DNA of 64,000 bases. Origin: an uncultured Acidimicrobiales bacterium (GTDB lineage: Bacteria > Actinomycetota > Acidimicrobiia > Acidimicrobiales > CAWCAL01). Location of the stretch: positions 471,975-535,974 of the forward strand of contig CAVOFR010000008.1 in NCBI GenBank assembly GCA_963695075.1, given 5' to 3'. Both the position numbers and the translations under genes were made by a program. This document shows, in pieces, positions 18,283-61,374 of the stretch. Position 1 is the stretch's first letter, and the number at the start of each line of letters is the position of its first letter. The notes under the pieces were generated by a model. The model was not told where the DNA came from and did no database searches. It was given only the letters and a program-made list of their open reading frames with translations.

Positions 18283-18352
18283 GCTCGAGGACCTCCACCG
18301 GGGCAGAGTCCGCGCGCCGGCGCTTCGCCGCCGGGACAGGCTGCGCGGGAGG

Positions 18353-20068
18353 TCAGCTGATGACCCGGAACAGTTCCTCGACCGTGGTCAGGCCCATCTT
18401 CACCTTGCGCAGACCGTCAGCTCGCAGCGTGCTCATTCCCTGCTCCACCGCGACCTTCTCGACATCCTCGACCCGGCCCCGATCCAGCACCAGCTCTGCG
18501 ATCTCCTCGGTGACCGTCAGCACCTCGTGGATGGCGAAGCGACCCCGGTAACCGGTGTCGCCGCAGGCTTCACAGCCCACCGCCTGGAACGCTGAGAACG
18601 AGGACTGGGCGGTAAGCTCGGGCGGCAGCGCGGCAAGGCTCGTCTCGTCCAGACCGAGCCGATCCAAATGGATCTCGAAGGGCTCGCGGCACTTCTCGCA
18701 CAGGCGGCGGGCGAGCCGCTGGGCCAGCACCGCCGAGAGCGCCGACGAGACGAGAAACGGCTCCACCCCCATCTCGATCAGCCGCATCGGTGCCGACGCG
18801 CTGTTGTTCGTGTGAAGGGTCGACAACACGAGGTGGCCGGTGAGCGATGCTTCGACGGCCATTGTGGCGGTCTCACCGTCACGGATCTCACCGACGAGCA
18901 TCACGTCGGGGTCGGCCCGCAGGAACGAGCGCAAGGCCCGGGCGAAGGTCATGCCCGCCTTCTGATTGACCTGGACCTGCTTGATCCCGTCCATCCGGTA
19001 CTCGACCGGATCCTCGATGGTGACGATGTTGCGGGTCGGGTCCCGGAGCTCGTCCAGCGTCGCATACAGCGTGGTCGACTTCCCCGATCCGGTCGGCCCG
19101 GTGACCAGGATGGCACCCCACGGTCGTTCGTAGGCTCGTCGGTAGCGGTCCAGCTGCTCGGGAAGGAAGCCGATACCGCCGACGCCGACCTGCGCCGTGT
19201 TCCTCAGGAGGCGGATTACCGCTGCCTCTCCGTGGACCGTCGGAATGGTGACGACACGAGCATCACACTCGATTCCACCGCCGGCCGCGGTCAGCCTGCC
19301 GTCCTGGGGTAGCCGCCGTTCGGCGATGTCGATGTCGGCCATCACCTTCACCCGGCTGATGATCCCGGCTTCGAGTGAACGGGGCGGTGACATCGCTTCG
19401 TGCAACACGCCGTCGACCCGGAACCGGATGCGGAGCTCGTCGGAGGTCGGCTCGATGTGGATGTCCGACGCGCCCTCCTGGATCGCCTTGGCCAGCAGGA
19501 GGTCGATGAACTGGACGAGCGGAGCCTTGTCGTCGCCGCTCGCCACCTCGACGGCCGCCGCGGGATCGATGACCTCGCGGTTCTCGCCGACCGCGGCCTG
19601 GATGGTCTCGTGCACTCTGGTGTCCGAGTGACCCATCCGCTCGATCAGAGCGAGGATCTGGGCCCCCTCGGCCATGACGGGCTTCACCTGGCTGCCGACG
19701 AACGACCGCAGGTCGTCCAGCGCCAGCACATCCACCGGATTGGCCATCGCCACGATGATCAGGGAGTCCTCGCGCCACACGGGGAGTGCCCGATGGCGGG
19801 TGGCGAGGTTGGGTGGGACGAGCTGAGCCAGCTCGATGTCGATCGCGCGATCGTCCAGATCCACGAAGGGGAGATCGAACTGCTCTGCGAGCGCCCGCAC
19901 GAGGTCGCGCGTCTTGACCAGTCCCTGTTCGAGAAGGACCTCGCCGAGTCGCTTACCTGTCGATCTCTGGATCTCCAACGCCTTCCCGACCTCGTCATCG
20001 CTGACGAGCTCGAGTGCGACAAGGATGTCTCCGAGCCGGCGACGCGTAGCTACCTCGACCTGAGCCAT
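18353..20068 (-). CDS. pilB: type IV pilus extension ATPase PilB (GspE/T2SSE family)
   Basis: Starts at MAQVEVATRRRLGDILV... (ATG 20068; the track ORF's 179-aa extension is antisense to pilT). T2SSE_N/MshEN N-domain, Walker A GPTGSGKSTTLYA, and the tetra-Cys zinc motif CEKCREP...CEACGDTGYRGR. Confidence 0.95.
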   Translation of the reverse strand: MAQVEVATRRRLGDILVALELVSDDEVGKALEIQRSTGKRLGEVLLEQGLVKTRDLVRALAEQFDLPFVDLDDRAIDIELAQLVPPNLATRHRALPVWREDSLIIVAMANPVDVLALDDLRSFVGSQVKPVMAEGAQILALIERMGHSDTRVHETIQAAVGENREVIDPAAAVEVASGDDKAPLVQFIDLLLAKAIQEGASDIHIEPTSDELRIRFRVDGVLHEAMSPPRSLEAGIISRVKVMADIDIAERRLPQDGRLTAAGGGIECDARVVTIPTVHGEAAVIRLLRNTAQVGVGGIGFLPEQLDRYRRAYERPWGAILVTGPTGSGKSTTLYATLDELRDPTRNIVTIEDPVEYRMDGIKQVQVNQKAGMTFARALRSFLRADPDVMLVGEIRDGETATMAVEASLTGHLVLSTLHTNNSASAPMRLIEMGVEPFLVSSALSAVLAQRLARRLCEKCREPFEIHLDRLGLDETSLAALPPELTAQSSFSAFQAVGCEACGDTGYRGRFAIHEVLTVTEEIAELVLDRGRVEDVEKVAVEQGMSTLRADGLRKVKMGLTTVEELFRVIS

Positions 20069-20188
20069 GTGGTGCTCATCGGCCTCCGGCTCCCGGTGTT
20101 GAGCCACCGAGCGAGCTCCGCTCGGCAAGATCGCCGTCCCCCGGGTGGGATCGCTCAACTCGGCCTCGGGGCCGCCGATTCTCCTCGT

Positions 20189-21352
20189 GTGGAAACCCCG
20201 CCCGAAGCAGACTGGCGCGCCCTCGACGACGATGGGCGCGCGTTCCTGAGTGAAGCACTGTCGGCGATCGACGATCCGGCCAGCGGAAGACTGGCCGAGC
20301 TGCTCGATGCCGCCGTGGCCGCCGGGGCGTCGGACCTCCACCTCACCGCGGGGTTGGTGCCGTATCTCCGGGTACGGGGGGTGTTGCGCCCGCTCGCCGG
20401 CGCCACCGCGCTCTCGGCGACAGAGCTGCACCAACTCCTGGAGGCCGCGCTGTCCGCCGAACAGCGATCGACGCTGTCGGCCACCGGCGATCTCGACATC
20501 GGGTTGACCCTCGGTCAAGCCGATGGCCAGGGGCGGCGATTCCGAGTCAACGTCTTCCGTCAGACCGGGACGCTCGCCGCAGCGATCCGCATCGTTCCCT
20601 CCCACATCCCGGAGATGGGCGAGCTCGGCCTGCCCGCGACGATCCAGCGCTTCGTCGAGCTCGACGGAGGCCTGGTCCTCGTCACCGGGCCCACCGGATC
20701 AGGAAAGTCGACGACCCTCGCGGCCATGACCGAGCAGATCAACCGCACCCGGGCCGATCACATCGTCACGATCGAGGACCCGATCGAGTACCGCTACTCC
20801 AGCGCCGCGTCGATCGTCCAGCAGCGTGAGGTCGGCATCGACACGTGCTCGTTCGCAACGGCGCTGCGCCATGCGCTCCGCCAGGACCCCGATGTCATCC
20901 TGATCGGCGAGCTCCGCGACCTGGAGACCATAAGGATCGCTCTGACCGCGGCGGAAACGGGCCACGTTGTCTTCGCGACGCTCCACAGCGCCGACGTCAC
21001 CAGCTCGGTCAACCGGGTGATCGATGTCTTTCCTGCCGACCAACAGGCCCAGATCCGCTCCCAGCTCGCCCTCTCCATACAGGGGTGCGTCAGCCAGCGG
21101 CTGCTCCCGGGCGCCGACGACACCCTCGCCGTGGCCACCGAGGTCATGGTCGCCACGTCGGCCGTACGCAACCTGATCCGCGACGACAAGCTGCATCAGC
21201 TGCGATCGGTCCTGGAGACCGGCGGCGAACACGGGATGCACACGTTCGATCAGTCCCTCTCCGAACTGGTCAGGCGAAATCAGCTCGATCCGAGTGTGGC
21301 CCGTCGGGCCGCCCACAGCGTGTCCAACCTCGAGGCCAGGGACCGGCCATGA
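20189..21352 (+). CDS. pilT: twitching-motility retraction ATPase PilT
   Basis: ASDLHLTAGLVPYLRVRG, Walker A VTGPTGSGKSTTLAAM, TIEDPIEY, ALRQDPDVILIGELRD and GHVVFATLHS. There is no in-frame ATG after pilB, so the start is provisionally GTG 20189. Confidence 0.9.
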   Translation: METPPEADWRALDDDGRAFLSEALSAIDDPASGRLAELLDAAVAAGASDLHLTAGLVPYLRVRGVLRPLAGATALSATELHQLLEAALSAEQRSTLSATGDLDIGLTLGQADGQGRRFRVNVFRQTGTLAAAIRIVPSHIPEMGELGLPATIQRFVELDGGLVLVTGPTGSGKSTTLAAMTEQINRTRADHIVTIEDPIEYRYSSAASIVQQREVGIDTCSFATALRHALRQDPDVILIGELRDLETIRIALTAAETGHVVFATLHSADVTSSVNRVIDVFPADQQAQIRSQLALSIQGCVSQRLLPGADDTLAVATEVMVATSAVRNLIRDDKLHQLRSVLETGGEHGMHTFDQSLSELVRRNQLDPSVARRAAHSVSNLEARDRP

Positions 21353-22662
21353 CGGCGGCGATGGCCCGATCCCCGTTCCGCCGGCGGCAACAGCAGTCGC
21401 CCGGCGATACCGGTACCGCCGTCGTTGCGTCTCCGCCCGGAGGGGCGGCCACTTTCCGCTACCGGGCGATCGACGAGGACGGTGCGGTCCGAAATGGCCA
21501 GCTGGACGGTGATTCCGAAGCCGAGACCGTCGCCCGACTGCGCCGCCACGGTCTCAGGCCGGTCTGGGTTCGCCGATCGCGTTCCGCTGCGCTCGGCCAC
21601 GACTACTCGATGCCGGGGAGGGGGCCGAAGGTCAAGGGCGGAGAGTTGGCGGTCATGGCCCGACAGTTCTCGACGATGATCAATGCCGGTATCCCCCTGC
21701 TACGGACCCTGGAGGTACTGCGCAGACAGGCCGACAATCCCCTTCTCGTCAGCACGCTCGAGCAGATGCGTTTCGACATCGAGGCCGGTGACTCCCTGAG
21801 CGACGCCGTCAGCCGCCACCCGAGGGTCTTCGATCGACTCTTCGTCGCCATGATCCGATCCGGGGAGGCGGCCGGAGCCCTCGACATCGTCCTGCTCCAG
21901 ATCTCCACCACCCTCGAGCGTGCCGTGGCGATCCGTCAGAAGATCCGCTCGGCCCTGGCCTACCCGACGGCCGTCCTGTTCATGGTGGTCGGCGTGATCA
22001 TCGCCATGCTGCTCCTCGTGGTCCCGGTCTTCGCCGGCCTCTATGACGATCTCGGCGGCACCCTGCCTCTTCCGACCCGGCTCCTGGTGGCGGCGTCCGA
22101 CACGATCACGAACTACGTGCCCTACATCGCGATCGGTACCGCGATCGCGGGCTTCGTACTCATCCGGTGGAAACGGACCGATCAGGGCCGGTACCGATTG
22201 GACGGGCTGAAACTGCGTCTCCCGCTCGTCGGCAACCTCCTGCGCAAGAGCGCGGTCGCTCGGTTCGGCCGCACGATGGCCGTGCTCACCAAGGCCGGGG
22301 TACCCGTGCTGGAGACCCTGAGGATCTCCGCCGACACGGTGGGCAACGCCGTCCTCTCCCGGACGCTGTCCGACACCCGCGACGCGGTGCGCAGTGGCGA
22401 GCCCATCGCCGCGAATCTCGCCCGGGGCGAGATGTTCCCGCCGATGGTCATCCAGCTGGTGTCCGTCGGCGAGGAAACCGGCACCCTCGACCAGATGTTC
22501 GACACGGTGGGGCGGACATTCGAGGAGGAGGTCGAGACCTCGGTCGCCGGCTTCGCCGCGCTGATCGAGCCGCTCATGATGGCGCTCATCGGTGTCGTCG
22601 TCGGGGGCATGGTGATCGCCCTCTACCTACCGATGTTCCGGCTCATCGAGCTCGTTCAGTAG
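21349..22662 (+). CDS. pilC: type IV pilus platform protein PilC (T2SSF family)
   Basis: ATGA overlap with the pilT stop. Two T2SSF repeats (LAVMARQFSTMINAGIPLLRTLEVL... and VARFGRTMAVLTKAGVPVLETLRI...) and three TM segments. Confidence 0.95.
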   Translation: MTAAMARSPFRRRQQQSPGDTGTAVVASPPGGAATFRYRAIDEDGAVRNGQLDGDSEAETVARLRRHGLRPVWVRRSRSAALGHDYSMPGRGPKVKGGELAVMARQFSTMINAGIPLLRTLEVLRRQADNPLLVSTLEQMRFDIEAGDSLSDAVSRHPRVFDRLFVAMIRSGEAAGALDIVLLQISTTLERAVAIRQKIRSALAYPTAVLFMVVGVIIAMLLLVVPVFAGLYDDLGGTLPLPTRLLVAASDTITNYVPYIAIGTAIAGFVLIRWKRTDQGRYRLDGLKLRLPLVGNLLRKSAVARFGRTMAVLTKAGVPVLETLRISADTVGNAVLSRTLSDTRDAVRSGEPIAANLARGEMFPPMVIQLVSVGEETGTLDQMFDTVGRTFEEEVETSVAGFAALIEPLMMALIGVVVGGMVIALYLPMFRLIELVQ

Positions 22663-45917: not shown

Positions 45918-46820
45918 ATGGCCTCAACAGGCGAGACCGAGTCCGAGCACCGCTCGGTAGCGGTCACGGTGAGCCGTCGCGACGTCGTCGTCGGCCTCGG
46001 CATGCTCCCGCTGTTGCGCCTGCTCCCCCGGTCGACGGTCGAGGCCGCGTTCGCTCAGAAGCCGGACGGGTACCGGTTCCTCGACGACCACGAGGCCCGG
46101 GTGGTCATCGAGGCCACCGCACGGCTGATCCCGGGTCCGCTCGACGATCCGGAGGAGGCGGGTCACCCCGGGGCCAGGGAGGCCGGCGTCGTCTTCTACA
46201 TCGACCGCATGCTCTCGGCCTTCCACGACGACCCGCCGCGGATCTTCGCCGGCGGACCGTTCAGCGACCGAGCCGGGGCCACCGACAACGAGCTCGAGAC
46301 CTTCATCCCGCTGACACCGGAACAGGAGGTGCAGTGGCGTGGACGCCTCGAGCACCTCGGCGCCACCTACCGCGACGGCATCGGGAAGCTCGACGCCGGG
46401 GCCGGTGGAGACTTCACAGCGGTGACGGGCGACGAACAGGACGCGATCCTGGTCGCGGAGACCGACTTCAGACGGGTGCTCTTCGAGCACGCCATCGAGG
46501 GCACATACGCGCTGCCCGAATACGGTGGAAACCGGGAGCTCACCGGGTGGGGCGAGATCGGCTATCCGGGCGACAGCGCTCCCCGCGGCTTCACCGCCAC
46601 GGAGGTGAGCGACTCCGACGGTCCGGATGAAGCCCCCGCCGACGTACCCCTGCCCTATGCGCCGGCCTCAGCACGGGGCGAGCGTCCGACCGCTGCTCTC
46701 CTCGGAGAGATCGAACCGCCGGCCGAGGTCGATGACCTGTCCGGTGTCATTCCCGACCTCGGAGCATTCCTCGATGCGGCCCTGCCCGGGTTGGGACGGA
46801 GGGGGTCGCATCGTGGCTGA
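45918..46820 (+). CDS. gluconate 2-dehydrogenase subunit 3 family protein (Tat-signal small subunit)
   Basis: Twin-arginine-like signal VSRRDVVVGLGMLPLL, then FLDDHEARVVIEATARLIPGP, typical of this family. Confidence 0.7.
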   Translation: MASTGETESEHRSVAVTVSRRDVVVGLGMLPLLRLLPRSTVEAAFAQKPDGYRFLDDHEARVVIEATARLIPGPLDDPEEAGHPGAREAGVVFYIDRMLSAFHDDPPRIFAGGPFSDRAGATDNELETFIPLTPEQEVQWRGRLEHLGATYRDGIGKLDAGAGGDFTAVTGDEQDAILVAETDFRRVLFEHAIEGTYALPEYGGNRELTGWGEIGYPGDSAPRGFTATEVSDSDGPDEAPADVPLPYAPASARGERPTAALLGEIEPPAEVDDLSGVIPDLGAFLDAALPGLGRRGSHRG

Positions 46821-48747
46821 GCGGGCGATCGTCGTCGGCAGCGGTCCGGGCGGCGCCACCGCAGCAATGGTCATGGCCCAGGCTGGATGGAACGTCACCG
46901 TCTACGAGAGAGGGGTCGACCACTTCCAGGATCTCGACCGGCCGATCCCTTCGACCCGGTTCAGCAACGACGAGCTGAAGATGCGGCGAGGGTTCGGCGA
47001 CACCGACTGGGACCTCGACCCGCGAACGTTCCGGGCCGACGCATCGAGCGACGTGCCCCTCGACCTCGGCGCCGTCAACAACGTCCCGCAGACCGTGTCC
47101 GGCGGAACGTCGCAGTGGGACGCCAAGACCCCGCGCTTCTGGGACATGGACTTCCGCAAGCTCAGCATGCTCGGACCCATCGAGGGCGCAGACGTCGTCG
47201 ACTGGCCCTTCGCCTACGAGGACCTCGCCCCCTTCTACGACAGTGTCGAATCGATGCTCGGGGTCGCCGGCGATCGGGAAGCCATGAAGGGCACACCGTC
47301 CGAGACCCACGCGCCCCGGTCCGGTCCCTTCCCTCTACCGCCGGGAACCCCGATGCTCTCCTCGGAGCTGCTCGCCGAGGGATGCCGCCGGGTCGGGCTC
47401 CGACCGTTCCCGTTCCCCGAGGCGATACTCTCCGAGGCCTACGACGGCCGGCCTCCCTGTATCAACTGCGGGTTCTGTTCGGGCTACGGGTGCACCGTCT
47501 TCGACCGGGGCAGTGCACTGGTTCCCCTCCGCCACGGACTCCTCACCGGCAATCTCGAGATCGTGGCGCAGTCGATGGTGACCCGGGTACTCCACCGCGA
47601 CGGCCGGGCCACCGGTGTCGCGGTCGTGGGCCCGGACGGCACCGAACGAACCGAGGAGGCCGATTGGGTGGTGCTCGGTTGCGGGCCGATCGACACGGCG
47701 CGGCTGGCTCTGCTGTCCGAGCTGCCCGACGAGAGCGGGCTCATCGGCCGAGGCCTGATGTTCCACTGGTTCACCGCGGGGTTCGGTATCTGGACCGATG
47801 AGCGCATCCACGCCAACCGGGGCCGGGACACGTCCCAGACATGCGACGACTTCTGCGACCCCGAGTTCGCGGGCGCCAGGGCCGCCGCGGCGGAAGCGGG
47901 CCTGCCGTACTTCCGAGGTGGGGTCCTGGAGTTGGGGGGTACGGAGTCCGTGATCGGCGAGGCACTCCAGTACGTCGATCTCATGGAGATCTTCAGCCCC
48001 GACAAGCCCTTCGGTCGTAGGTTCAAACAGCTCATGCGGGTCTCCGCGCTGCGGGATCGGCTGACCGGCGTGCTGATGATCGCCGAAGACCTAGCCCAGG
48101 TGACGAACACGGTCGACCTCGACCCTTCGGTGACCGACCATTTCGGCCTCCCGGCGGCCCGGATCACATACCGCCCCCACGCCCACGAGCTGGCCGCCCA
48201 GGCGTTCTACCTGCCGCGGGTGACCGAGTTCATCGAGGCTGCTGGGGCAGCCGAGGCCGGAGCGGTTCCGCAGAGCGGCCCCATACCCACGCCGGACGGT
48301 GGCTGGGTGGCGTCACCGCCGGGCAACATCTCACCCGTCGGCAAGCACATCCTCGGCGGGATGCGCATGGGCACCGGCGCCGCCACGAGCGTGACCGATG
48401 CCCACGGGCGAGTCTGGGGCCTCGAGAACCTCTCGGTCTCCGACGGCTCGCTCTTTCCGACGAGCGGGGCCCACAACCCGACGCTCACCATCTTCGCCAC
48501 CGCACTCCGCAACGCCCGGGCCTGGGTGGGCGCCGAGGGCCCACCCGACCTGTCGACGACGACCCCGGTCCCGTCCGGGTCCGGGACCGCTGGCGCGCCG
48601 CCGAGCGACGACGGGGACGGTGGAGTCGCCCGCCCGCTGATGGCCGGCGGAGCGGTGGTCGGCGCCGCGGCCGGCCTCGGGGCGCTGGCGGCGAGACGAC
48701 GGGGCCGGACCGATGATCGGCCCCCCGACGCGGGGCAGACCGACTGA
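46813..48747 (+). CDS. GMC-family FAD-dependent oxidoreductase (large subunit) with C-terminal hydrophobic anchor
   Basis: GTG 46813 overlaps the upstream stop (GTGGCTGA). FAD motif AIVVGSGPGGATAA and GMC C-terminal region HILGGMRMG...NLSVSDGSLFPTSGAHNPTLTI. Extra tail ...PPSDDGDGGVARPLMAGGAVVGAAAGLGALAARRRGR. Confidence 0.85.
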   Translation: MAERAIVVGSGPGGATAAMVMAQAGWNVTVYERGVDHFQDLDRPIPSTRFSNDELKMRRGFGDTDWDLDPRTFRADASSDVPLDLGAVNNVPQTVSGGTSQWDAKTPRFWDMDFRKLSMLGPIEGADVVDWPFAYEDLAPFYDSVESMLGVAGDREAMKGTPSETHAPRSGPFPLPPGTPMLSSELLAEGCRRVGLRPFPFPEAILSEAYDGRPPCINCGFCSGYGCTVFDRGSALVPLRHGLLTGNLEIVAQSMVTRVLHRDGRATGVAVVGPDGTERTEEADWVVLGCGPIDTARLALLSELPDESGLIGRGLMFHWFTAGFGIWTDERIHANRGRDTSQTCDDFCDPEFAGARAAAAEAGLPYFRGGVLELGGTESVIGEALQYVDLMEIFSPDKPFGRRFKQLMRVSALRDRLTGVLMIAEDLAQVTNTVDLDPSVTDHFGLPAARITYRPHAHELAAQAFYLPRVTEFIEAAGAAEAGAVPQSGPIPTPDGGWVASPPGNISPVGKHILGGMRMGTGAATSVTDAHGRVWGLENLSVSDGSLFPTSGAHNPTLTIFATALRNARAWVGAEGPPDLSTTTPVPSGSGTAGAPPSDDGDGGVARPLMAGGAVVGAAAGLGALAARRRGRTDDRPPDAGQTD

Positions 48748-48765
48748 GGGAGCCGCGGGTCGGCG

Positions 48766-49389
48766 TCAGGCTTCGGGCACCAGGTTGGAGAAGGCATCGA
48801 CCCGGTCCCGCTCGATCTGCTCGACGTTGGATCTCCGCCCTCCCTTGGCGACGTAGTCCCCGGCGAATTCGGCCCGGACCTCGCCCGTCTCGTCCAAGAG
48901 CCAGTCGGGGGCCATGCGGCGCGGGACGGTGACCACGCCCGGCTCGTCGTAGGTCCGCATCAGGCGATCCCAGATCGGCGTGGTCACCCCGAAGTTCCGC
49001 ATGGGCGCACCGAAGTGGTGATGGAGGTGGCTCCGTCGGGCCCACCGGCCGTAACGGCCGCGGGGCGGGTGGGTGTGGGTCCGCCGGTGCGCCACCTCGT
49101 AGACGTAGTAGGTACCGATCATCCCGACGGTGAATGCGACGGCCCACCGATGGCCTGCCACGGCCCTGGTGGCCGGGTAGGCCACAGCGGTGGTGCCCGC
49201 GGCCGAGGCGGCCTTCGCTGACGCCGGCGCGAAGTACGTGACGTCGGCGTGATGCTTCAGATGCTCGACCGAGGCCATCCCCCGACCTCGCATCTCGTGC
49301 ATCGCGAAGCGATGCAGGCCGTATTCGGCTCCCGTCCACGACATCGCACCGACGATCGCCGCGGTCAGGGGTGATCGGAGGATTCTCAT
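48766..49389 (-). CDS. fatty-acid hydroxylase / sterol desaturase superfamily protein (carotene-hydroxylase-sized)
   Basis: MRILRSPL... 207 aa with four His boxes: HRFAMHE, HLKHH, HRRTHTH, HLHHH. ATGA overlap with the upstream gene. Confidence 0.75.
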   Translation of the reverse strand: MRILRSPLTAAIVGAMSWTGAEYGLHRFAMHEMRGRGMASVEHLKHHADVTYFAPASAKAASAAGTTAVAYPATRAVAGHRWAVAFTVGMIGTYYVYEVAHRRTHTHPPRGRYGRWARRSHLHHHFGAPMRNFGVTTPIWDRLMRTYDEPGVVTVPRRMAPDWLLDETGEVRAEFAGDYVAKGGRRSNVEQIERDRVDAFSNLVPEA

Positions 49390-50420
49390 GGGAAGTCCAG
49401 TGTACGGCCCGGCAGGGTCCCGATCTCCAAACCGGCCAGCTCGGACGTCCCGTCGAACAGAAGGCGGCCGCGCTCGCGCACGACGCAGTGCATCCGACCG
49501 GCCAGATGCTCGAAGTCGGTGTCGACGTTGCGCCGCTCGGCGGGTAGCGGGACAGGCAGCACGTGGTGATCCAACTCGGTGCCGTCGCCCTCGATCTCGA
49601 TCTGAAAGCGCAGCGACCGGGCTCGAACGCTCCACCGTCCTGGACTCAGCTCGGAACGCACGGGTGACGGTGGCGTGATTCGGATCACCCGGTCGCCGAG
49701 GCGGACGACCACACCGCAGACGTCTCGACCCACAGGCCCCAGCCGCAGCGAACCGCCCGAGAAAGCGACCGACACGTCCGCACCGTCGAAGTCGTGGGCC
49801 TGACCCCACCACCAGCGGTCCGGAAACCCGGCTCCCCAGTTCCTCTCGGCATAGACGTTCGCCCCATCGAGCGGCCACCGGTCGTCGACGACGACGATCG
49901 CGCCGCTCGCGCTGCCGCCGAGGCGGTGCGGGTGCCAGTACTGGTTCAGGAACGGGACCGCCGAGAACACCCCGCCACCGCCGAAGGCCCTCGGCCAGGC
50001 AAACGAGTCCGTGAAGCTCAGGTCGAGATGGATCTCCTCGAGGTCGACCCGGACCCGATCGGGAGTGGCCTCGATACCGGCTTCGGGCAGCGTTCCGGCT
50101 CGCAGCATGAATCGGGTCCGGTCGCCGTGGGCATCGTCGAGGGCCGCGGCCCGGACGATCCCCCCGGGGTGCGCGGCGACGGCGACCGTCGCCCAGTCTC
50201 CGTCGGGGTGTCGGTTCAGCCCGCAGAGGGCCACCACGACCCGGCCCGAGGACGGATCGGTCACCCGCCAGAACCAGCCCTCCATCTCGGTGCCGTGGGA
50301 AGGGAGTGAGTCGCCGTACGGGAGGTCCGCGCCGGTCCGCCGAAACGCCGTCACCAGCCGTGTCCGAGCCGTCGCCGCGGCCCGGCGCAACCGGTTCGGT
50401 CGGTCGATCGCGTTCGACAT
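49386..50420 (-). CDS. tocopherol-cyclase-like family protein
   Basis: MEGWFWRVTD (compare FEGWYFRV) and YAERNWGAGFPDRWWWGQA (compare EKNWGxxFPxKWFWxQ) match motifs I recall from VTE1/SXD1-type tocopherol cyclases. Start at ATG 50420, preceded by GAAGGGGG. Confidence 0.6.
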   Translation of the reverse strand: MSNAIDRPNRLRRAAATARTRLVTAFRRTGADLPYGDSLPSHGTEMEGWFWRVTDPSSGRVVVALCGLNRHPDGDWATVAVAAHPGGIVRAAALDDAHGDRTRFMLRAGTLPEAGIEATPDRVRVDLEEIHLDLSFTDSFAWPRAFGGGGVFSAVPFLNQYWHPHRLGGSASGAIVVVDDRWPLDGANVYAERNWGAGFPDRWWWGQAHDFDGADVSVAFSGGSLRLGPVGRDVCGVVVRLGDRVIRITPPSPVRSELSPGRWSVRARSLRFQIEIEGDGTELDHHVLPVPLPAERRNVDTDFEHLAGRMHCVVRERGRLLFDGTSELAGLEIGTLPGRTLDFP

Positions 50421-50610
50421 GCGCCCCCTTCGACGGCTCGGCAATCGCACGGTACCCCGAGGACGGTCCGTGACAAGCACCAGCGCACCCGGCCCTGAGT
50501 AGTCGCCCACCTCCCGGGCCGGACGCGGCCGGCGTCACGGGCGACCGGGTGGCCACGCGTTGTGACCTTCCGCCCTGGCGAGATCCTCGCCAGGGCGGGA
50601 CGGTGTCGGT

Positions 50611-51561
50611 ATGCGAAGAACCGCGTTGACCGCCGTAGTGTCGGCTGAGGTCGTCGCGTGGTTGCTCGACGGTGACGCCGCGATCCGCTGGCAGGTCGAG
50701 CGCGACCTCCTCGATGCGACCCCGGGCGAGATCACAGCTGACCGGTCGCTCGTGGCGACCACGGGCTGGGGCCGGGACCTCCTCAGCCGGCAGGACGCCG
50801 ACGGCACCTGGGGCGGAGGCCTGTACGGACCGAAGTGGATCTCGACCACCTACACCCTCACCCTGCTCCGGCGCTGCGGGCTCGACCCTGCCAACGCTGC
50901 TGCACGACGGGGCGTCGAGCTCCTGTGGGACGGCGCCCGCTATTTCGATGGTGGCCTCACCGCCGCCTCGTCCATCGACGCTCCCGAAGCCTGCATCACC
51001 TCGATGTACGTGACACTGGCGAGCTACTTCGGCTACGTGGACCCCCGGGTCGACACCGCGCTGGGGTGGCTGCTCGACAATCAGCTGGCCGACGGCGGCT
51101 GGAACTGCCGGAACGTCCGCTTCGGTGACCGCCACAGTTCGTTCCACACCTCGATCTCGGCCCTCGAGGCCCTCGCCGAAGCCGAACGGGCCGACCCCGC
51201 TGACGGCGACCTTCCGGCCGCGCTGGCACGAGGCCGGGAGTTCTTCCTGGATCACCACCTCTACCGGTCCCACCGCGACGGTTCCGTCGTCGACCCGGTC
51301 TTCACCAAGCTCTCCTTTCCCCCGCGGTGGCACTACGACATCCTCCGCGGTCTCGACCATTTCGCCCTGACCGGGGCCCCTTGGGACGAACGGTTCCGCG
51401 ACGCTCTCGACGTCCTCGCCGGACGGCAGCGCAAGGACGGCACCTGGCCTGTGCAGCACAAGCACACCGGCCAGGTCTGGTTCGACATGGAACGAACCGG
51501 CGGACCGAGCCGCTGGAACACGTTGCGGGCGCTGCGGGTCCTTTCCTGGGCGCCGCCGTAG
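50611..51561 (+). CDS. prenyltransferase/squalene-oxidase-repeat (alpha-alpha toroid, terpene-cyclase-like) protein
   Basis: Repeated QxxDGxW-type motifs: RQDADGTWGG, NQLADGGWNC, RQRKDGTWPV. Confidence 0.6.
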   Translation: MRRTALTAVVSAEVVAWLLDGDAAIRWQVERDLLDATPGEITADRSLVATTGWGRDLLSRQDADGTWGGGLYGPKWISTTYTLTLLRRCGLDPANAAARRGVELLWDGARYFDGGLTAASSIDAPEACITSMYVTLASYFGYVDPRVDTALGWLLDNQLADGGWNCRNVRFGDRHSSFHTSISALEALAEAERADPADGDLPAALARGREFFLDHHLYRSHRDGSVVDPVFTKLSFPPRWHYDILRGLDHFALTGAPWDERFRDALDVLAGRQRKDGTWPVQHKHTGQVWFDMERTGGPSRWNTLRALRVLSWAPP

Positions 51562-53292
51562 TCAGCCGCTGCCGGCCGCGATGACCGCCCGGTTGCGGTC
51601 GGCCACCTGTTGCGCGTCGACCTTGACGATCTTGCGGTCGTAGGTGAGCAGACCGTTGACCTCCCGCTCGACGTCGGTCAGCTGCGTGTAGATCGAGGCG
51701 GCCAACCCCTTCGGGATGCGGGCCCGCACCTCCTCCATCAACTCCAGGTACCGGCGGGTCAGGTCGCGCTCGCTGCGCGACTTCCTGTACCCCCAGTTCC
51801 GTTTTGTCGCCCACGTGTGTCCGTCGACCTCGAGGCCGATGCCCCCGTATTCGGAGCATGCCACCGCCCGCTGGTCGTCCGGTTTCGGGCGGGCGGGACC
51901 CGGATAGCGGTGAGCGCTGCGGATGTCACCGACACCACGGTCGATCCATCCCGACGCCGAGTCGATGGGGCGGGAGGAGTCGAGCCGCCTGATGCGGTCG
52001 GTGATGCGGGCGGTGTCCCATTGCCCCCAGGCCTCGTTGAACGGCACCCAGACCACCACGCTCGGCACGTCTCGAAGATGGTCGACGATCTCGTCGAGCT
52101 CCTCCTCGAACCACCGACGCCACTTCGCTGTCCTGTAGGGGAAGATGCCTGGATTGGGGATGTCCTGCCACACCAGGAGACCGAGTCGATCGCAGTGGTC
52201 GTACCACCGGGCCGGCTCGACCTTGATGTGCTTGCGGGTGGCGTTGAAACCAAGCTCCCTGGTGATCTCGATGTCGTGACGGAGCGCCTCGTCGGTGGGA
52301 GCGGTGTACAGGCCGTCGGGCCACCAGCCCTGGTCGAGCGGCCCATGGTGGAAGACGGGCTCGCCGTTCAAGAGCAACCGCAGATCACCTCGGGCGTCAC
52401 GGCCCACCGCGGTCGAACGCAGCGCGGCATGAGAGCGAACGGTGTCGATGGGCTCTACCGCCCCGTCGGGCACTGCCACATGGTTCAGCCGCACCCGGAG
52501 GTCGTAGAGGTGGGGGTCGGTGGGAGTCCAGGGCCGGGGTGCCGGAAGGTCGGCCCACAGCCTCTGCCCGACCGGCCCGGAGACCTCGGCGACCGGTCGG
52601 TCTCCCGACCGGATCTCGATCGTGCCGATGATGTCGTCACCGCCAGCGGACGCGCCACCATCGACCGACACCGTCAACCCGAGGGCACCCCGCTCGACAT
52701 CCGGGGCGAGGTGTACGGCCTGGATTGACGTTGCAGGAACGGGTTCGAGCCAGACCGTCTGCCAGATCCCCGATACCGCCGTGTAGAAGACCAGCTTGGG
52801 TCGCAGCGTCTGCTTGCCCCGGGCCTGCCGCCCGCGGTTTGTGGGATCGGCCACGATGATGACCAGCTCGTTGTCGCCATCCGACTTCGCCTCGGTGAGT
52901 TCGACGGTGAAAGGGGTGAAACCGCCTCGATGTTCGCCCACCCGCGTGCCGTTGCACCGGACGATCGTGTGCCAGTCGGCCGCGAGATGCAGCAGCAGGC
53001 GCTGGCCGGCCCAGGATCGGGGGGTCGTGAAGGTCCGGCGGTACCAGAGCCGTTCGTCCGGCCCGAGACGGCGAGCGACGCCCGACAGCGACGATTCGAC
53101 CGGGAACGGCACGACTATCCGGCCGTCCCAACGGCTCGGTCGACCCTCGCCGCGCCGTCGGATGGCGTAGTCCCAGCACCCGTTCAAGCTCTCCCACTCG
53201 TCACGCACCAGTTGCGGTCGCGGGTACTCGGGAAGCGGGTGGTCGGAGTCGACCTGCCCGGACCATCGCGTGGCCAGGCGCCTCGAACTCAT
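51562..53292 (-). CDS. glycoside hydrolase family 2 (beta-galactosidase/glucuronidase/mannosidase-like)
   Basis: MSSRRLATRW... sugar-binding domain (LHLAADWHTIVRCNGTRVGEHRGGFTPF), TIM barrel with NATRKH and the acid/base residue in VPFNEAWGQ. ATGA overlap with the GH27 stop. Its stop abuts the stop of the convergent gene with no gap. Confidence 0.85.
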   Translation of the reverse strand: MSSRRLATRWSGQVDSDHPLPEYPRPQLVRDEWESLNGCWDYAIRRRGEGRPSRWDGRIVVPFPVESSLSGVARRLGPDERLWYRRTFTTPRSWAGQRLLLHLAADWHTIVRCNGTRVGEHRGGFTPFTVELTEAKSDGDNELVIIVADPTNRGRQARGKQTLRPKLVFYTAVSGIWQTVWLEPVPATSIQAVHLAPDVERGALGLTVSVDGGASAGGDDIIGTIEIRSGDRPVAEVSGPVGQRLWADLPAPRPWTPTDPHLYDLRVRLNHVAVPDGAVEPIDTVRSHAALRSTAVGRDARGDLRLLLNGEPVFHHGPLDQGWWPDGLYTAPTDEALRHDIEITRELGFNATRKHIKVEPARWYDHCDRLGLLVWQDIPNPGIFPYRTAKWRRWFEEELDEIVDHLRDVPSVVVWVPFNEAWGQWDTARITDRIRRLDSSRPIDSASGWIDRGVGDIRSAHRYPGPARPKPDDQRAVACSEYGGIGLEVDGHTWATKRNWGYRKSRSERDLTRRYLELMEEVRARIPKGLAASIYTQLTDVEREVNGLLTYDRKIVKVDAQQVADRNRAVIAAGSG

Positions 53293-57690: not shown

Positions 57691-59085
57691 ATGAACGACA
57701 CCGGCGGAGCGACGGCCGAGTTGCTCGCCAAGTACGACCGGCAGGGACCCCGCTACACCTCCTATCCCACGGCCGTGGAGTTCCACGAGGGGTTCGGCCC
57801 CGACGACTATGCCGCCCGGCTGGCCGACGCTGCCGGCCGACCGCACGACCCCCTATCGCTGTACGTCCACCTGCCCTTCTGCGAGCACCGGTGCTCGTTC
57901 TGTGCCTGCCACGTCGTCGTGACCCAGAACGAGAGCCTGGCCGACGCCTACCTCGTCCACCTCGTGGCCGAAGCGCGCGCCACGGCCGAGCGGCTGGGTG
58001 ATCGACGGGTGCTCCAGCAGTACCACTGGGGGGGTGGCACGCCGACCTTCTATCCGCCGGCGGTGCTCGCCGATCTGCATCGCCAGCTCCTGTCCGAGTT
58101 CGTACTGGCCCCCGGGGCCGAGGTCGCGCTCGAGGTCGATCCTCGGAACACGACCGAGGAGCATCTCTCGACGCTGCGGGAACTCGGCTTCAACCGCGTG
58201 TCGATGGGTGTCCAGGATGCCGACGACGAGGTGCAGCACCTCATCGGCCGACACCAGACCTGGGAACAGACGGCGAGCCTCCATGAGGCGGCCCGCCGGC
58301 TCGGCTACGGGTCGACGAACGTCGATCTCATATACGGCCTGCCCGGCCAGACCGAACGGTCCTTCGCCCGTTCCCTGGAGCTCGTGATCGGCCTCCGCCC
58401 CGACCGCCTCGCCGTCTACTCGTTCGCGCTCGTACCCCACATGCGTCCGCACCAGAAGCGGATCGATGCGGGGCTGCTTCCGGATCGCGACCTGAAGTTC
58501 GGCCTGCTCTCGCTCGCCATCGCGCGGCTCACCGGTGCCGGCTACGAGCAGATAGGCATGGACCACTTCGCCCTGCCCGGCGACGAGCTCGCCGTAGCCC
58601 ACCGCGAGCGCACCTTGTCCCGGAACTTCATGGGATACACCACGAAACGGGGTACCGAGATCGTCGGCCTGGGCACGTCGGCGATCAGCGAGGTGGCCGC
58701 GAGCTACGCCCAGAACCATCGTCGGCTGGCCTCGTACTACCAGGCTGTCGACGCGGACGAGCTCCCGGTCGAGCGGGGCATCGCGCTCGACCGGGAGGAT
58801 CTACTCCGTCGCTACGTGATCACCGAGCTCATGTGCAACGGCCGCCTTCGGGCGAGCGAGGTGGACGACAGGTTCGGGGTCGCCGTGGACGAACACTTCG
58901 CCGCCGAGCTCGCCGAACTGCGTGCGCCCGATGGCCTGGTCGAGGCAGGCTTCGTGCGGGTCGAGGGTCGCGACATCGAGGCCACGCCGATCGGGCGACA
59001 GTTCATCCGCAACGTGGCCATGGTCTTCGACGCCCGACTCGGGGCCGGGAGCGGCAGCGACCAGCCGTTCTCCCGGACGGTCTGA
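57691..59085 (+). CDS. hemN: oxygen-independent coproporphyrinogen III oxidase (radical SAM, true HemN type)
   Basis: KYDRQGPRYTSYPTAVEF N-terminus, radical-SAM cluster motif CEHRCSFCAC, and 464 aa, like E. coli HemN rather than the short HemW. Confidence 0.9.
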   Translation: MNDTGGATAELLAKYDRQGPRYTSYPTAVEFHEGFGPDDYAARLADAAGRPHDPLSLYVHLPFCEHRCSFCACHVVVTQNESLADAYLVHLVAEARATAERLGDRRVLQQYHWGGGTPTFYPPAVLADLHRQLLSEFVLAPGAEVALEVDPRNTTEEHLSTLRELGFNRVSMGVQDADDEVQHLIGRHQTWEQTASLHEAARRLGYGSTNVDLIYGLPGQTERSFARSLELVIGLRPDRLAVYSFALVPHMRPHQKRIDAGLLPDRDLKFGLLSLAIARLTGAGYEQIGMDHFALPGDELAVAHRERTLSRNFMGYTTKRGTEIVGLGTSAISEVAASYAQNHRRLASYYQAVDADELPVERGIALDREDLLRRYVITELMCNGRLRASEVDDRFGVAVDEHFAAELAELRAPDGLVEAGFVRVEGRDIEATPIGRQFIRNVAMVFDARLGAGSGSDQPFSRTV

Positions 59086-59089
59086 CGCG

Positions 59090-60058
59090 GTGGCACCGAC
59101 CGGTGTGGTCGTCGCTCAGCTCGGAGGCCCGGAACGCCTCACCGACGTCGAGCCGTTCATCCGCTCGATCTTCGACGACCCCCGCCTCGTCCCCCTCCCC
59201 GGAGGGTCGAGGACCAGGTCGACCGTGAGCACACTCGTCGCGCGCGTCCGAGCGCCGCGGGTCCGCTCCCACTACGAGGCCATCGGTGGGGGCTCACCGA
59301 TCGCGTCGACCACCCGGGATCAGGCCGCCGCTCTCGAGGGAGAGCTCACCACTCGCGGACACGACGTCGTCGTGGCCGTCGCCCACCGCCACGGTCACCC
59401 CGATTCGGGCGCCGCGGTGGAGACGCTGCTGGCGGCGGGTGTCGACCGGGTCGTCATGCTCCCTCTGTTCCCGCAGTACTCCGGAGCCACGACGGGCTCG
59501 TCGGAAGCCGAGCTGCGACGCGTTCTCGCAGATCGCGGAGCCGACCTCCCCTTGAGGGTGATCCGATCGTGGTGCGAGCATCCCGGTTACCTGGCCGCGC
59601 AGGCTCAGCTGGTCGAGGAGATGCTCTCCGAGAGATCCGACCGTGAGTCCGACCGAACCCTCGTCGTGTTCTCGGCCCACGGTCTGCCCCAGCGGATCGT
59701 CGATCGCGGTGATCCGTACCCCGAGGAGGTCGAGGCCACCGTGGACGGGGTGACCCGGCGACTCCGGCGACCGGTCGACCACCTCATCGCCTACCAGTCG
59801 AGGGCGGGCCCGATCCGGTGGATGGGTCCTGACGTCCGTGAGGTGGTCGCGACCGCGGCTGCCGGGGGACCGACGTGGCTCGGTGTCGTACCGATCTCAT
59901 TCGTCTCGGAGCATGTGGAGACCAGCTACGAGCTCGACATCGAGTTGAAGGCCCACGCCGAGGTCGCCGGCATCCGTGAGTTCCATCGGAGCAGGTGCCT
60001 CGACTCGGACCCGATCGTCGGCCCGATGCTCGCCGACATCGTCGAGGAGCAGCTGTGA
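59090..60058 (+). CDS. hemH: ferrochelatase (HemH/CpfC)
   Basis: GTG 59090, 5 nt after the hemN stop. VVVAQLGGPE, the His ligand in VVFSAHGLPQR, and SFVSEHVETSYELD. Confidence 0.9.
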   Translation: MAPTGVVVAQLGGPERLTDVEPFIRSIFDDPRLVPLPGGSRTRSTVSTLVARVRAPRVRSHYEAIGGGSPIASTTRDQAAALEGELTTRGHDVVVAVAHRHGHPDSGAAVETLLAAGVDRVVMLPLFPQYSGATTGSSEAELRRVLADRGADLPLRVIRSWCEHPGYLAAQAQLVEEMLSERSDRESDRTLVVFSAHGLPQRIVDRGDPYPEEVEATVDGVTRRLRRPVDHLIAYQSRAGPIRWMGPDVREVVATAAAGGPTWLGVVPISFVSEHVETSYELDIELKAHAEVAGIREFHRSRCLDSDPIVGPMLADIVEEQL

Positions 60059-61374
60059 GCGAGCGCCCGGACGTGATCGTCGTCGGGGGCGGCCTCGGCG
60101 GGCTGCTCGTGGCGTGCGAGGTCGCCCGGCGCGGCGGCCGGCCACTCGTCCTCGAGGCCGGCCCGAGAGGGGGCGGCGTGGCCGCCACCATCCGCGAGGA
60201 CGGCTTCCTGCTGGAGCCCGCGGCCGGATCGCTCCTGCTCCCCCACCCCCACCTGACACCCATCCTGGAGTCGGCCGGGGCCACCGTCGTCCCCGCGGAG
60301 CCAGCCGCTCGTCGCCGCTACGTGTACGACCGGGGCACGCTGTTCGAGCTCGCCGGCCCGGGAGCGGTAGCGACCCGCCTCGTGTCAGCACGGAGCAAAC
60401 TCCGACTCCTCCGTGAGCCTTGGGTGCGAGCTCGAACGGTTTGCGCCGACGAGTCCCTTCACAGCTTCCTGGCACGCCGGCTCGGTCCCGAGGTGGGTCG
60501 CCTCGGCGCGACCCTCATGGCGCACGGCGTGTTCGCGGCCGATCCCGACCTGTTGTCGGCGCGGGCGGCGTTTCCCGCGCTCGTCGCCCTCGAGGACCGG
60601 GCCGGGAGCATGGTACGCGGCGGCCTGGCCCGCCGCCGTGACCGTCCGAAGGGAGCGCCCAGGGCCAGCGTGCACGTCGCACCACATGGCATGGCCGGGC
60701 TCGCCTCCGAGCTCGCCACCCACCTCGGTGACGGATTCAGACCGGACTGGACCGTCGATGCCGTCCAGCGCGACGGGGACGAATGGCTCGTGACCGGTCC
60801 CGGCGAGGAACGGGCCCCTTCGGTCGTGGTCGCCCTCGAACCCACCGCCGCCGCTCGTCTCGTTCCGGAACCCATTCCTGCATTGTTGGCCGAGGCTCGC
60901 TCCGCGCCGGTCGCGGTCGTCGGGCTCGGTGGGCGATCAGCGGACCTGCCGGTGCCCACGGGATTCGGGGCGCTCGCGGGTCCCGACGCCGACGTCCGCG
61001 CCCTCGGGCTGCTGTTCGAATCGTCTTACGCGCCGGGCCGGGCGCCGGCCCGCCACCGACTGCTCAAGGGGATCTACGCCGGCAGCGCCGATCCCTCGGC
61101 GTTCGCCCTCAGCGATGAGCAACTGGTCGCGCTGGCGGTCGAGGAGGCGGGCACGATCCTCGGCGTGCCACTCCAGCCGTCCTGGACCCGAGTCGTCAGG
61201 CACACGCCCGGAATCCCTCAGTACCAGGTGGGCCATCCGACTTGGCTCGACCGGCTCGACGAGGCCACCGCCGGCTTCCCGGGGCTCCACCTGGCCGGCT
61301 GGGCGTACCGGGGTGTGGGCGTGTCGTCGCTCGCCCAGCACGCGACAGCACTGGCCGAGACGGTGCTGGGGTGA
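60055..61374 (+). CDS. hemY: FAD-dependent protoporphyrinogen/coproporphyrinogen oxidase (HemY/CgoX)
   Basis: GTGA overlap with the hemH stop. VIVVGGGLGGLLVACEVARRG dinucleotide-binding motif, and C-terminal GLHLAGWAYRGVGV. Confidence 0.8.
   Translation: MSERPDVIVVGGGLGGLLVACEVARRGGRPLVLEAGPRGGGVAATIREDGFLLEPAAGSLLLPHPHLTPILESAGATVVPAEPAARRRYVYDRGTLFELAGPGAVATRLVSARSKLRLLREPWVRARTVCADESLHSFLARRLGPEVGRLGATLMAHGVFAADPDLLSARAAFPALVALEDRAGSMVRGGLARRRDRPKGAPRASVHVAPHGMAGLASELATHLGDGFRPDWTVDAVQRDGDEWLVTGPGEERAPSVVVALEPTAAARLVPEPIPALLAEARSAPVAVVGLGGRSADLPVPTGFGALAGPDADVRALGLLFESSYAPGRAPARHRLLKGIYAGSADPSAFALSDEQLVALAVEEAGTILGVPLQPSWTRVVRHTPGIPQYQVGHPTWLDRLDEATAGFPGLHLAGWAYRGVGVSSLAQHATALAETVLG

Follow-up and report, generated by a model that had tools for sequence, protein, structure and literature searches.

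Tocopherol cyclases of the VTE1, SXD1 and slr1737 type, which belong to Pfam family PF14249 and adopt an all-beta fold, carry the motifs EGW(Y/F)(F/W)R, YxE(K/R)NWG and FPxxWxWxQ, which have been proposed to be catalytic (PMC4963081). The same 2016 study already listed mycobacterial orthologues of the protein described below among bacterial cyclase-like proteins whose function was unknown, including those of M. kansasii and M. pseudoshottsii, which appear in a bacterial out-group in its S2 Fig, and it was the sole relevant source retrieved when a characterised bacterial PF14249 member was sought in the literature. It agrees with the preliminary description of the present locus, in which tocopherol-cyclase homologues of non-phototrophs were regarded as lacking a defined role. 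A second group comprises AttH, kievitone hydratase, CrtC-type hydratases, fungal decalin-forming pericyclases and a 25-phosphosteroid lyase; its members have a double beta-barrel that accommodates a lipophilic substrate, and additions or eliminations at C=C bonds are catalysed by several of them. Two further kinds of described enzyme are relevant here, i.e. the di-iron oxygenases related to the sphingolipid alpha-hydroxylase Scs7p, to sterol desaturases and to CrtZ, which have the histidine boxes HxxxxH, HxxHH, HxxxH and HxxHH, and the class II terpene cyclases (e.g. squalene-hopene cyclase, SHC; SsDMS; MstE), which share the alpha/alpha-toroid and QW-like repeats with protein prenyltransferase beta subunits.

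We analysed a 64-kb stretch of DNA (referred to as the window), in which homologues or fold relatives of these proteins are neighbours: a tocopherol-cyclase-like gene (TC-like), a gene for a small putative di-iron hydroxylase (FAH) and a gene for an alpha/alpha-toroid protein (TOR), whose coordinates are collected in Table 1. Judged by best hits, the host is an Acidimicrobiia-like actinobacterium. The preliminary description had read the three as one functional module for the cyclisation and hydroxylation of a prenylated aromatic or polyprenyl lipid, and had proposed their recurrence as neighbours in other genomes as its own test. Each of the three family or fold assignments stood, and the functional module did not, since no such trio was seen elsewhere in approximately 170 loci. 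We consider it likely that TC-like, FAH and TOR are separate, individually conserved orphan genes that are neighbours in this lineage and form no conserved pathway module.

Table 1. Features of the locus, with positions counted from the first letter of the window.
Feature	Position	Strand	Basis
FAH, 207 aa, fatty-acid-hydroxylase-superfamily di-iron protein	48766..49389	-	PF04116, Scs7p profile match, His
ATGA overlap, TC-like stop / FAH start	49386..49389	-	direct read: ...ttc cca tga / atg aga atc...
TC-like, 344 aa, AttH/kievitone-hydratase-like all-beta fold	49386..50420	-	PF14249, homologues, motifs, Foldseek
Divergent intergenic region, 190 bp, between TC-like and TOR	50421..50610		
TOR, 316 aa, single-domain alpha/alpha toroid, three QxxDGxW repeats	50611..51561	+	weak SQHop matches, AF2 model, Foldseek

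The family assignment of TC-like made earlier was borne out by a profile HMM search, in which PF14249 (Tocopherol_cycl) scored 80.9 bits (cut-off 26.6, E 1.2e-22) in an alignment limited to residues 149-334 (profile positions 146-334 of 335), and by the motifs MEGWFWR (46-52), YAERNWG (190-196) and FPDRWWWGQ (199-207). All three are invariant or almost so in an alignment of 15 orthologues, the invariant residues being Y190, E192, N194, W195, G196, F199, P200, W203-205 and Q207. Compared with the patterns YxEKNWG and FP+xWxW+QxNxF given in PMC4963081, the protein has YAERNWG, with R in place of K, and FPDRWWWGQAHDF, with H in place of N, and both motifs are present. A total of 911 homologues were found, with orthologues in Acidimicrobiia and Mycobacterium, the latter including M. 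kansasii, M. marinum/ulcerans and the M. simiae complex. The relationship to the plant enzyme is more restricted: in a BLASTP comparison with residues 73-465 of Arabidopsis VTE1, copied from S2 Fig of PMC4963081, 199 aa aligned at 29% identity (query 153-337, E 5e-18). This similarity is confined to the C-terminal half, and the sole match of the N-terminal half is the 7-residue pair MEGWFWR / FEGWYFR; full-length orthology was not found, and a stretch of approximately 100 residues in the middle of VTE1 is without an equivalent in TC-like. TC-like further differs from VTE1, SXD1 and slr1737 in belonging to the bacterial out-group clade and, unlike their hosts, the organism is a non-phototroph, with no homogentisate or prenylquinone genes near TC-like.

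A PDB sequence search with TC-like gave no match, and it was the fold search alone that returned relatives. For the predicted model, which is of moderate quality (pLDDT 65), the best Foldseek matches were AttH (2ich), kievitone hydratase (7a0q), CrtC-type hydratases, the fungal decalin-forming pericyclases (Fsa2, Phm7, CghA) and a 25-phosphosteroid lyase, with entry 9fzn also among the matches (E 5e-9 to 1e-4, probability 1.0, TM ~0.5); sequence identity to this group is just 9-13%. The bacterial TC-like clade of Mycobacterium and Acidimicrobiia retains the proposed catalytic motif together with an AttH/kievitone-hydratase-like fold. As a member of the bacterial clade of PF14249 with a putative double-beta-barrel of the AttH/CrtC/kievitone-hydratase type, TC-like would hold a hydrophobic substrate in its barrel, where the invariant Glu of YxE(K/R)NWG may serve as a general acid that protonates a C=C bond, after which water or an internal nucleophile would be added in hydratase/cyclase-type chemistry.

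FAH was likewise correctly recognised as a PF04116-type protein with four His boxes. FA_hydroxylase (PF04116) scored 59 bits (cut-off 31), the boxes HRFAMH (26), HLKHH (43), HRRTH (101) and HLHHH (121) correspond to those of the Scs7p, sterol desaturase and CrtZ group, and ten His (H26, H31, H43, H46, H47, H101, H105, H121, H124 and H125) are invariant in 22 homologues; a profile match to the hydroxylase (catalytic) domain of Scs7p (4zr1) was found at E 9.5e-13. Public annotation (P0122) has a shorter form of 170 aa, and the 207-aa start is backed by homologues whose alignments span 100% of the protein. In comparison with the Scs7p, sterol desaturase and CrtZ group, FAH is small, lacks a cytochrome b5 domain and has a unique conserved C-terminal extension of approximately 60 aa (VPRRMAPxW...DRxDAFxN). 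Its description as a membrane di-iron hydroxylase holds for the family and the His boxes, while the membrane part is inferred; FAH has at most two weakly hydrophobic helices (segments 3-21 and 82-100; strongest 19-residue Kyte-Doolittle value 1.1), and members of the PF04116 superfamily usually have four transmembrane helices. We rejected FAH as the carotenoid beta-ring hydroxylase CrtZ because no NCBIfam equivalog, including CrtZ, matched at E <= 0.01 and no crt genes were found in the window or at four FAH loci on long contigs (L081-L084). Within the fatty-acid hydroxylase/sterol desaturase superfamily, FAH would be a minimal oxygenase of the di-iron His-box type that presumably hydroxylates or desaturates a lipid. 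Related genomes mostly carry it as a stand-alone gene.

The divergent orientation of TOR, the gap of about 190 bp and the three QxxDGxW repeats of an alpha-alpha toroid had all been reported correctly. The repeats, QDADGTW (61), QLADGGW (158) and QRKDGTW (273), are a feature common to non-cyclase toroids, and the AF2 model is a confident single alpha/alpha toroid (pLDDT 83, pTM 0.86). Profile matches to the cyclases are weak, both for SQHop_cyclase_N (29.0 bits against a cut-off of 26.2, no single stretch passing alone) and for SQHop_cyclase_C, and the NCBIfam cyclase models TIGR03463, TIGR01787 and TIGR01507 scored 30, 26 and 24 bits against cut-offs of 851, 323 and 431, respectively. The best Foldseek matches were SsDMS (drimenyl diphosphate synthase; the top PDB match, at 20% identity), SHC, complement TED, GH76 and FTase beta, all at E >= 1e-4 and TM ~0.5, and GH76 mannanases and complement thioester domains resemble TOR equally weakly. 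In contrast to class II terpene cyclases, TOR is a single domain, not a beta-gamma didomain, and has no DxDD/DxDTT acid motif: a regular-expression search of the 316 aa found neither DxD[DTE] nor DDxx[DE], and no terpene-cyclase acid motif lies among the invariant alignment columns. Since the terpene-cyclase catalytic aspartates are missing, no cyclase function can be assigned. The invariant residues C128, C166, H175 and H179 hint at a chemistry other than that of class II terpene cyclases. TOR probably consists of one (alpha/alpha)6 barrel. Its family is uncharacterised and very large, with at least 7963 homologues found, every one named hypothetical. As a functional partner of the adjoining GH2 and alpha-galactosidase genes TOR was ruled out, because these genes are convergent with it and not co-transcribed.

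Gene neighbourhoods were compared at 80 loci found via TC-like (orthologues at 60-75% identity, from Acidimicrobiia and Mycobacterium), 84 via FAH (the four long-contig loci and 80 metagenome loci, 43 of these with at least 1.1 kb upstream) and 5 via TOR. The closest genomes compared are at approximately 78-83% protein identity, so the conservation counts apply to kin at that distance or beyond. Genes in the 80 TC loci were called by codon-position GC; single-linkage clusters of ORFs >=90 aa were dominated by shadow ORFs in this GC-rich DNA. FAH adjoined TC-like in none of the 80 other genomes (0/80), and a toroid gene lay within 10 kb of TC-like in one (1/80, L007), where it is a 45%-identical paralogue, convergent and approximately 1 kb downstream of TC, i.e. 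in a different arrangement. Neither FAH nor TOR stood beside those TC homologues of metagenomic origin that are closest to TC-like (76-78% identity), TC-like and TOR were adjacent to FAH at 0/84 loci, and TC-like and FAH were adjacent to TOR at 0/5, where the neighbours of TOR are unrelated. The absence of the three as neighbours from these related loci argues that the trio is probably no conserved isoprenoid/quinone-tailoring module. Functional cooperation without linkage may occur, because members of all three families are found together in genomes of Acidimicrobiia, in some cases on the same contig. TC and TOR lie approximately 18 kb apart on contig_31259, and FAH and TOR 1.17 Mb apart on JAWKIF010000006.1.

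What does recur downstream of TC in Acidimicrobiia, on the same strand, is a gene for a Pfam-less protein of approximately 250-310 aa (11/80 loci and L085-L087), which is absent from the 64-kb window. Among 150 immediate neighbours of TC orthologues, the commonest genes encode acyl-lipid enzymes, not prenylquinone enzymes: BD-FAE/Abhydrolase_3 esterases (10), AMP-binding (9), Acyl-CoA_dh_2 (9) and Acyltransferase (8), and the 25 most frequent families include no FA_hydroxylase, prenyltransferase or polyprenyl synthase and no prenylquinol supply genes (homogentisate prenyltransferase, HPPD, methyltransferase). Such lipid-flavoured neighbourhoods may reflect the lipid-gene-rich genomes of mycobacteria. 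The supply genes are missing from the window as well, and a Pfam scan of 48 of its 57 called genes detected no isoprenoid, quinone or carotenoid genes. For the genes scanned, the earlier remark that prenyl-diphosphate synthase and aromatic prenyltransferase genes are not to be seen is correct.

The ATGA overlap noted earlier was seen directly in the sequence. Judged from that reading frame arrangement, it implies that TC-like and FAH are co-transcribed, and perhaps translationally coupled, in this one genome. Such 4-bp overlaps are a signature typical of operons, so that the two genes are very probably co-expressed here. The same signature speaks against a reading of the genes as chance neighbours, as does the fact that all three superfamilies handle hydrophobic or isoprenoid-like substrates, which would be expected of a real module. 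One could accordingly propose a lineage-specific pathway of two genes, in which TC-like and then FAH act on one hydrophobic substrate (e.g. a prenyl or alkenyl chain that is cyclised or hydrated and then hydroxylated) and the operon is newly assembled; besides the overlap, the lipophilic substrates typical of both families and their wide distribution in Acidimicrobiia are in line with it. We regard this as unlikely, given that the adjacency is missing from all 80 TC and all 84 FAH loci, that TC in Acidimicrobiia usually has another gene as its partner, and that many Mycobacterium species possess a TC orthologue while no Mycobacterium is among the named sources (a minority) of the 120 best FAH homologues. 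The 4-bp overlap of TC-like and FAH in this one genome is the sole argument for a link. The bicistron is most likely specific to this lineage, and may represent a lineage-specific rearrangement rather than a common pathway. In a more explicit version, a recently assembled, lineage-specific bicistron would modify an endogenous lipid, either a prenylated quinol or another unsaturated one, in two steps, cyclisation or hydration first and hydroxylation second. The product could be, for example, a hydroxylated menaquinone derivative of chromanol-like or omega-cyclised form. This version appears quite improbable; if true, it would offer a first clue to what the bacterial tocopherol-cyclase-like clade does.

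Still less credence is given to an isoprenoid/quinone-tailoring module of all three genes, in which TOR would be class II terpene cyclase- or prenyltransferase-like, TC-like would form a chromanol-type ring and FAH would hydroxylate the product. The domain families are compatible with such a scheme, kievitone hydratase, whose substrate is a prenylated aromatic, belongs to the TC superfamily, drimenyl-diphosphate synthase and SHC are among the nearest solved structures to TOR, and a TOR paralogue near TC at L007 and the pair 18 kb apart on another contig are suggestive; yet TOR lacks DxDD/DDxxD, is single-domain and far under the cyclase NCBIfam cut-offs, has equally weak structural matches to GH76, complement TED and FTase beta, and is transcribed divergently, the prenyl supply genes are absent from the window, and the trio was not seen together elsewhere, by which neighbour criterion the scheme is already close to refuted. 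It is extremely improbable that TC-like is a genuine tocopherol or plastochromanol cyclase in an organism that makes tocochromanols, even with a PF14249 match above threshold and the YxE(K/R)NWG and FPxxWxWxQ motifs of PMC4963081 kept. Identity to VTE1 is low and local (29%, in the C-terminal 199 aa only, with an N-terminal half that is not alignable beyond the 7-residue motif), homogentisate pathway and prenyltransferase genes are absent nearby, and close TC-like orthologues are found in non-phototrophic mycobacteria. Mycobacteria are not known as tocopherol producers. The placement of such proteins as an out-group of unknown function (PMC4963081) also weighs against a tocochromanol cyclase.

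With separate orphan genes as the preferred reading, the adjacency of TC-like, FAH and TOR is unfit for functional inference, and the acyl-lipid enzymes, together with the unannotated protein of approximately 250-310 aa in Acidimicrobiia, are better leads to the function of TC-like than FAH or TOR. A scan of positions 48600-51700 found no sigma-70-like promoter or intrinsic terminator. The intergenic region between the divergent genes contains a perfect 13-bp inverted repeat (50570-50598), which is unique in the window and precedes the TOR start codon by 12 nt.

The preliminary description had proposed an isoprenoid/quinone-tailoring module formed by a tocopherol-cyclase-like protein (TC-like), a fatty-acid-hydroxylase-family protein (FAH) and an alpha/alpha-toroid protein (TOR). 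ORF listing and direct sequence reading bore out its gene layout, with the FAH gene downstream of TC-like, the FAH ATG overlapping the TC-like TGA, and TOR divergent from both across a gap of 190 bp. Public annotation of the source contig gives the FAH gene as a 170-aa form (P0122) that has lost the first His box; the 207-aa form, starting at the ATGA overlap, is the one supported by 207-aa homologues, which align with it end to end (70–83% identity). An 899-aa ORF, in frame through the FAH and then the TC-like and TOR regions, was rejected as an artefact, because G+C is 70% and codon-position GC backs only its 3'-terminal FAH part. Between the divergent genes lies a perfect inverted repeat, with arms of 13 bp around a loop of 3 nt (CCGCCCTGGCGAG atc CTCGCCAGGGCGG). 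It is placed 12 nt ahead of the start codon of TOR and occurs only once in the window; it may serve as an operator or form a hairpin in the 5'-UTR.

Features of the window and of the compared loci (L-numbers)
Feature	Position	Strand	Remarks
TC-like	49386-50420	-	344 aa; ATG start at 50420
FAH	48766-49389	-	207 aa
ATGA overlap	49386-49389	-	FAH start, TC-like stop
TOR	50611-51561	+	316 aa
899-aa ORF	48766-51465	-	rejected
Inverted repeat	50570-50598		
Gluconate-2-dehydrogenase-subunit-3/GMC-oxidoreductase pair	45918-48747		adjoins FAH/TC-like genes
Comparable subunit-3/GMC pairs	L018:2861-4644; L038:14041-16510; L064:18879-20979		near TC-like orthologues
Heme-biosynthesis cluster	57691-61374		HemN, ferrochelatase, Amino_oxidase-family flavoprotein
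Type IV pilus/T2SS-like gene set	14321-22662		PilM, T2SSE ATPase, T2SSF
BD-FAE/Abhydrolase_3 esterase	9552-10727		
BD-FAE/Abhydrolase_3 esterase	L172:4853-6109		adjoins TOR orthologue
Downstream TC-like partner, 250–310 aa (approximate)	e.g. L066:961-1710		L001, L004-L009, L023, L036, L066, L071
Same partner, further loci	L085:7049-7987; L087:7028-7927		

Each of the three genes adds a member to a known, uncharacterised family. TC-like matches Tocopherol_cycl (PF14249) at 80.9 bits (Pfam cut-off 26.6), the alignment being confined to the model's C-terminal half, and FAH matches FA_hydroxylase (PF04116) at 59 bits (cut-off 31), so both proposed family assignments hold; NCBIfam searches returned no model for either protein. 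The motifs earlier quoted for TC-like (MEGWFWR, YAERNWG, FPDRWWWGQ) and the His boxes quoted for FAH are all present and conserved, ten invariant His being spread over the four boxes in the homologue alignment.

TC-like, for which 911 homologues were detected, yielded an all-beta AF2 model of moderate quality (pLDDT 65, pTM 0.63), whose Foldseek matches in the PDB (probability 1.0, TM about 0.5) were kievitone hydratase (7a0q), AttH (2ich), the decalin-forming pericyclases Fsa2, Phm7 and CghA, and 25-phosphosteroid lyase. The predicted fold is thus that of the double-barrel AttH/CrtC-like superfamily, members of which bind lipophilic substrates. BLASTP against Arabidopsis VTE1, as transcribed from S2 Fig of PMC4963081, aligned 199 aa in the C-terminal half at 29% identity (E 5e-18), and a short N-terminal EGW motif was also shared. 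Tocopherol-cyclase-like proteins of heterotrophic bacteria were already described in 2016 (PMC4963081), including TC-like orthologues from M. kansasii and M. pseudoshottsii; that study drew attention to the motifs YxEKNWG and FP+xWxW+QxNxF but assigned no function, and our literature search found no later characterisation of these bacterial proteins. By analogy with the tocopherol cyclase mechanism proposed there and with hydratases that share the fold, TC-like may use the invariant Glu192 of YAERNWG for a proton-initiated reaction on a hydrophobic substrate, at a C=C bond.

A profile of FAH built from 22 homologues had a sole match in the PDB, the hydroxylase domain of Scs7p (E 9.5e-13), compared with which FAH is minimal, without the cytochrome b5 domain. 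It is weakly hydrophobic, has a conserved C-terminal tail, and would act on a lipid as a di-iron oxygenase.

The three QxxDGxW repeats reported for TOR are present and conserved. Against squalene-cyclase models TOR scored low, with a weak match to SQHop_cyclase_N (29.0 bits, cut-off 26.2, no single stretch being significant alone), SQHop_cyclase_C below the Pfam threshold, and 24–30 bits on NCBIfam squalene/oxidosqualene cyclase models whose cut-offs are 323–851. The family is very large (at least 7963 significant among 8000 scored candidates), and all source names among the 120 matches listed are 'hypothetical protein'. The confident TOR model (pLDDT 83, pTM 0.86) shows weak similarity, of about the same degree in each case (E at least 1e-4), to SsDMS, SHC, MstE, complement thioester domains, GH76 mannanases and farnesyltransferase beta; neither a DxDD nor a DDxxD motif occurs in the sequence, and we infer that no activity is assignable. 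C128, C166, H175 and H179, in the motifs PEAC, DGGWNC and HSSFHTS, are invariant in 23 orthologues and recall, at the sequence level, the Zn sites of prenyltransferase beta subunits and LanC-type toroids.

The conserved neighbourhood on which the proposed module depended was not recovered. We scanned one genome per GTDB species and kept the best 80 of 391 TC-like loci (60–75% identity; Acidimicrobiia/Microthrixaceae/Iamiaceae MAGs and many Mycobacterium species), in which FAH had no tblastn match up to +/-10 kb, even at E < 1, and TOR had one. The latter (L007) shows 45% identity, versus about 70% for TOR orthologues of the same taxa, and lies convergently about 1 kb downstream of TC-like with another gene between; one TOR-family match in about 1.5 Mb of TC-like flanks is the chance expectation for a multi-copy family. 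Neither partner was near the three closest metagenomic TC-like homologues on long contigs (76–78% identity), neither TC-like nor TOR occurred in 80 metagenome FAH loci (43 of them with an upstream flank of 1.1 kb or longer), and neither TC-like nor FAH adjoined TOR in five orthologue loci. On long contigs, the closest homologues of FAH (82, 77 and 75% identity) lie among unrelated genes, which differ from locus to locus. Where two of the families share a contig they are far apart, TC-like and TOR by about 18 kb (contig_31259/CAWCAL010000003.1) and FAH and TOR by 1.17 Mb (JAWKIF010000006.1). Seen from all three sides, the trio does not recur, and therefore the outcome named beforehand as refuting the module, that the genes are never neighbours elsewhere, is essentially what was found.

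Most probably, then, these are independently distributed orphan genes, the TC-like–FAH bicistron having arisen by a local rearrangement. That TC-like and FAH, with their overlapping genes, constitute a lineage-specific two-step pathway is rather unlikely, FAH being absent from the TC-like loci compared. An isoprenoid/quinone module of all three genes is a good deal less likely, and genuine tocochromanol synthesis, for all the resemblance to VTE1, is the least likely reading; Pfam scanning of 48 of the 57 genes called in the window found no polyprenyl synthase, UbiA-type prenyltransferase, phytoene/squalene synthase or quinone-biosynthesis gene. The same scan places the trio amid functionally unrelated genes: on one flank a TPP enzyme, the subunit-3/GMC pair (GMC oxidoreductase convergent with FAH), an ArsR regulator with a P-type ATPase, and Fe-ADH; on the other GH2 (convergent with TOR, stop to stop) and alpha-galactosidase genes, TreT and the heme cluster, whose flavoprotein is probably a protoporphyrinogen oxidase (protoporphyrinogen/coproporphyrinogen oxidase type). 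Sugar ABC transporter, GH1, pilus/T2SS and esterase genes lie farther off; neither the pilus/T2SS set nor the heme cluster is related to the trio.

The bacterial TC-like clade being already in the literature and the trio not a recurrent module, the value left lies in better leads to the role of these proteins. Clustering of genes called by codon-position GC gave one of them, a conserved Pfam-less protein of about 250–310 aa whose gene recurs downstream of TC-like, on the same strand, in Acidimicrobiia (11 loci plus L085–L087, overlapping TC-like by 8 bp in L087). It is absent from the window, where FAH sits in its place, and as a candidate for a functional partner it is preferable to FAH. The other lies in the esterase, acyltransferase and acyl-CoA genes of mycobacteria, where genetics is feasible; TC-like is flanked there by alpha/beta-hydrolases (ABHD18-like, BD-FAE esterases), a P450, a glyoxalase-fold protein, an acyltransferase and acyl-CoA dehydrogenases. 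Among 150 proteins encoded immediately beside TC-like orthologues, the leading Pfam families were BD-FAE/Abhydrolase_3 (10), AMP-binding (9), Acyl-CoA_dh_2 (9), Acyltransferase (8) and Epimerase (7, with 3Beta_HSD 4 and NAD_binding_4 5, matches that may overlap). They give a mild hint of acyl-lipid metabolism, a weak one because such genes are abundant in those genomes.

BD-FAE/Abhydrolase_3 esterases are the commonest immediate neighbours of TC-like orthologues in mycobacteria; one also adjoins a TOR orthologue, and the window contains another, some 39 kb away from the trio. Subunit-3/GMC pairs comparable to that of the window (44–49% identity) lie 3–9 kb from a TC-like orthologue in three other actinobacterial loci; either coincidence or weak synteny of the region may explain this. 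A TC-like orthologue (68% identity) on a contig labelled Candidatus Sericytochromatia (L044, JBLNEK010000061.1) is flanked by the gene clusters of actinobacterial loci L047 and L054, which points to an actinobacterial contig that was mis-binned, not to a cyclase-like gene in a sister lineage of the cyanobacteria.
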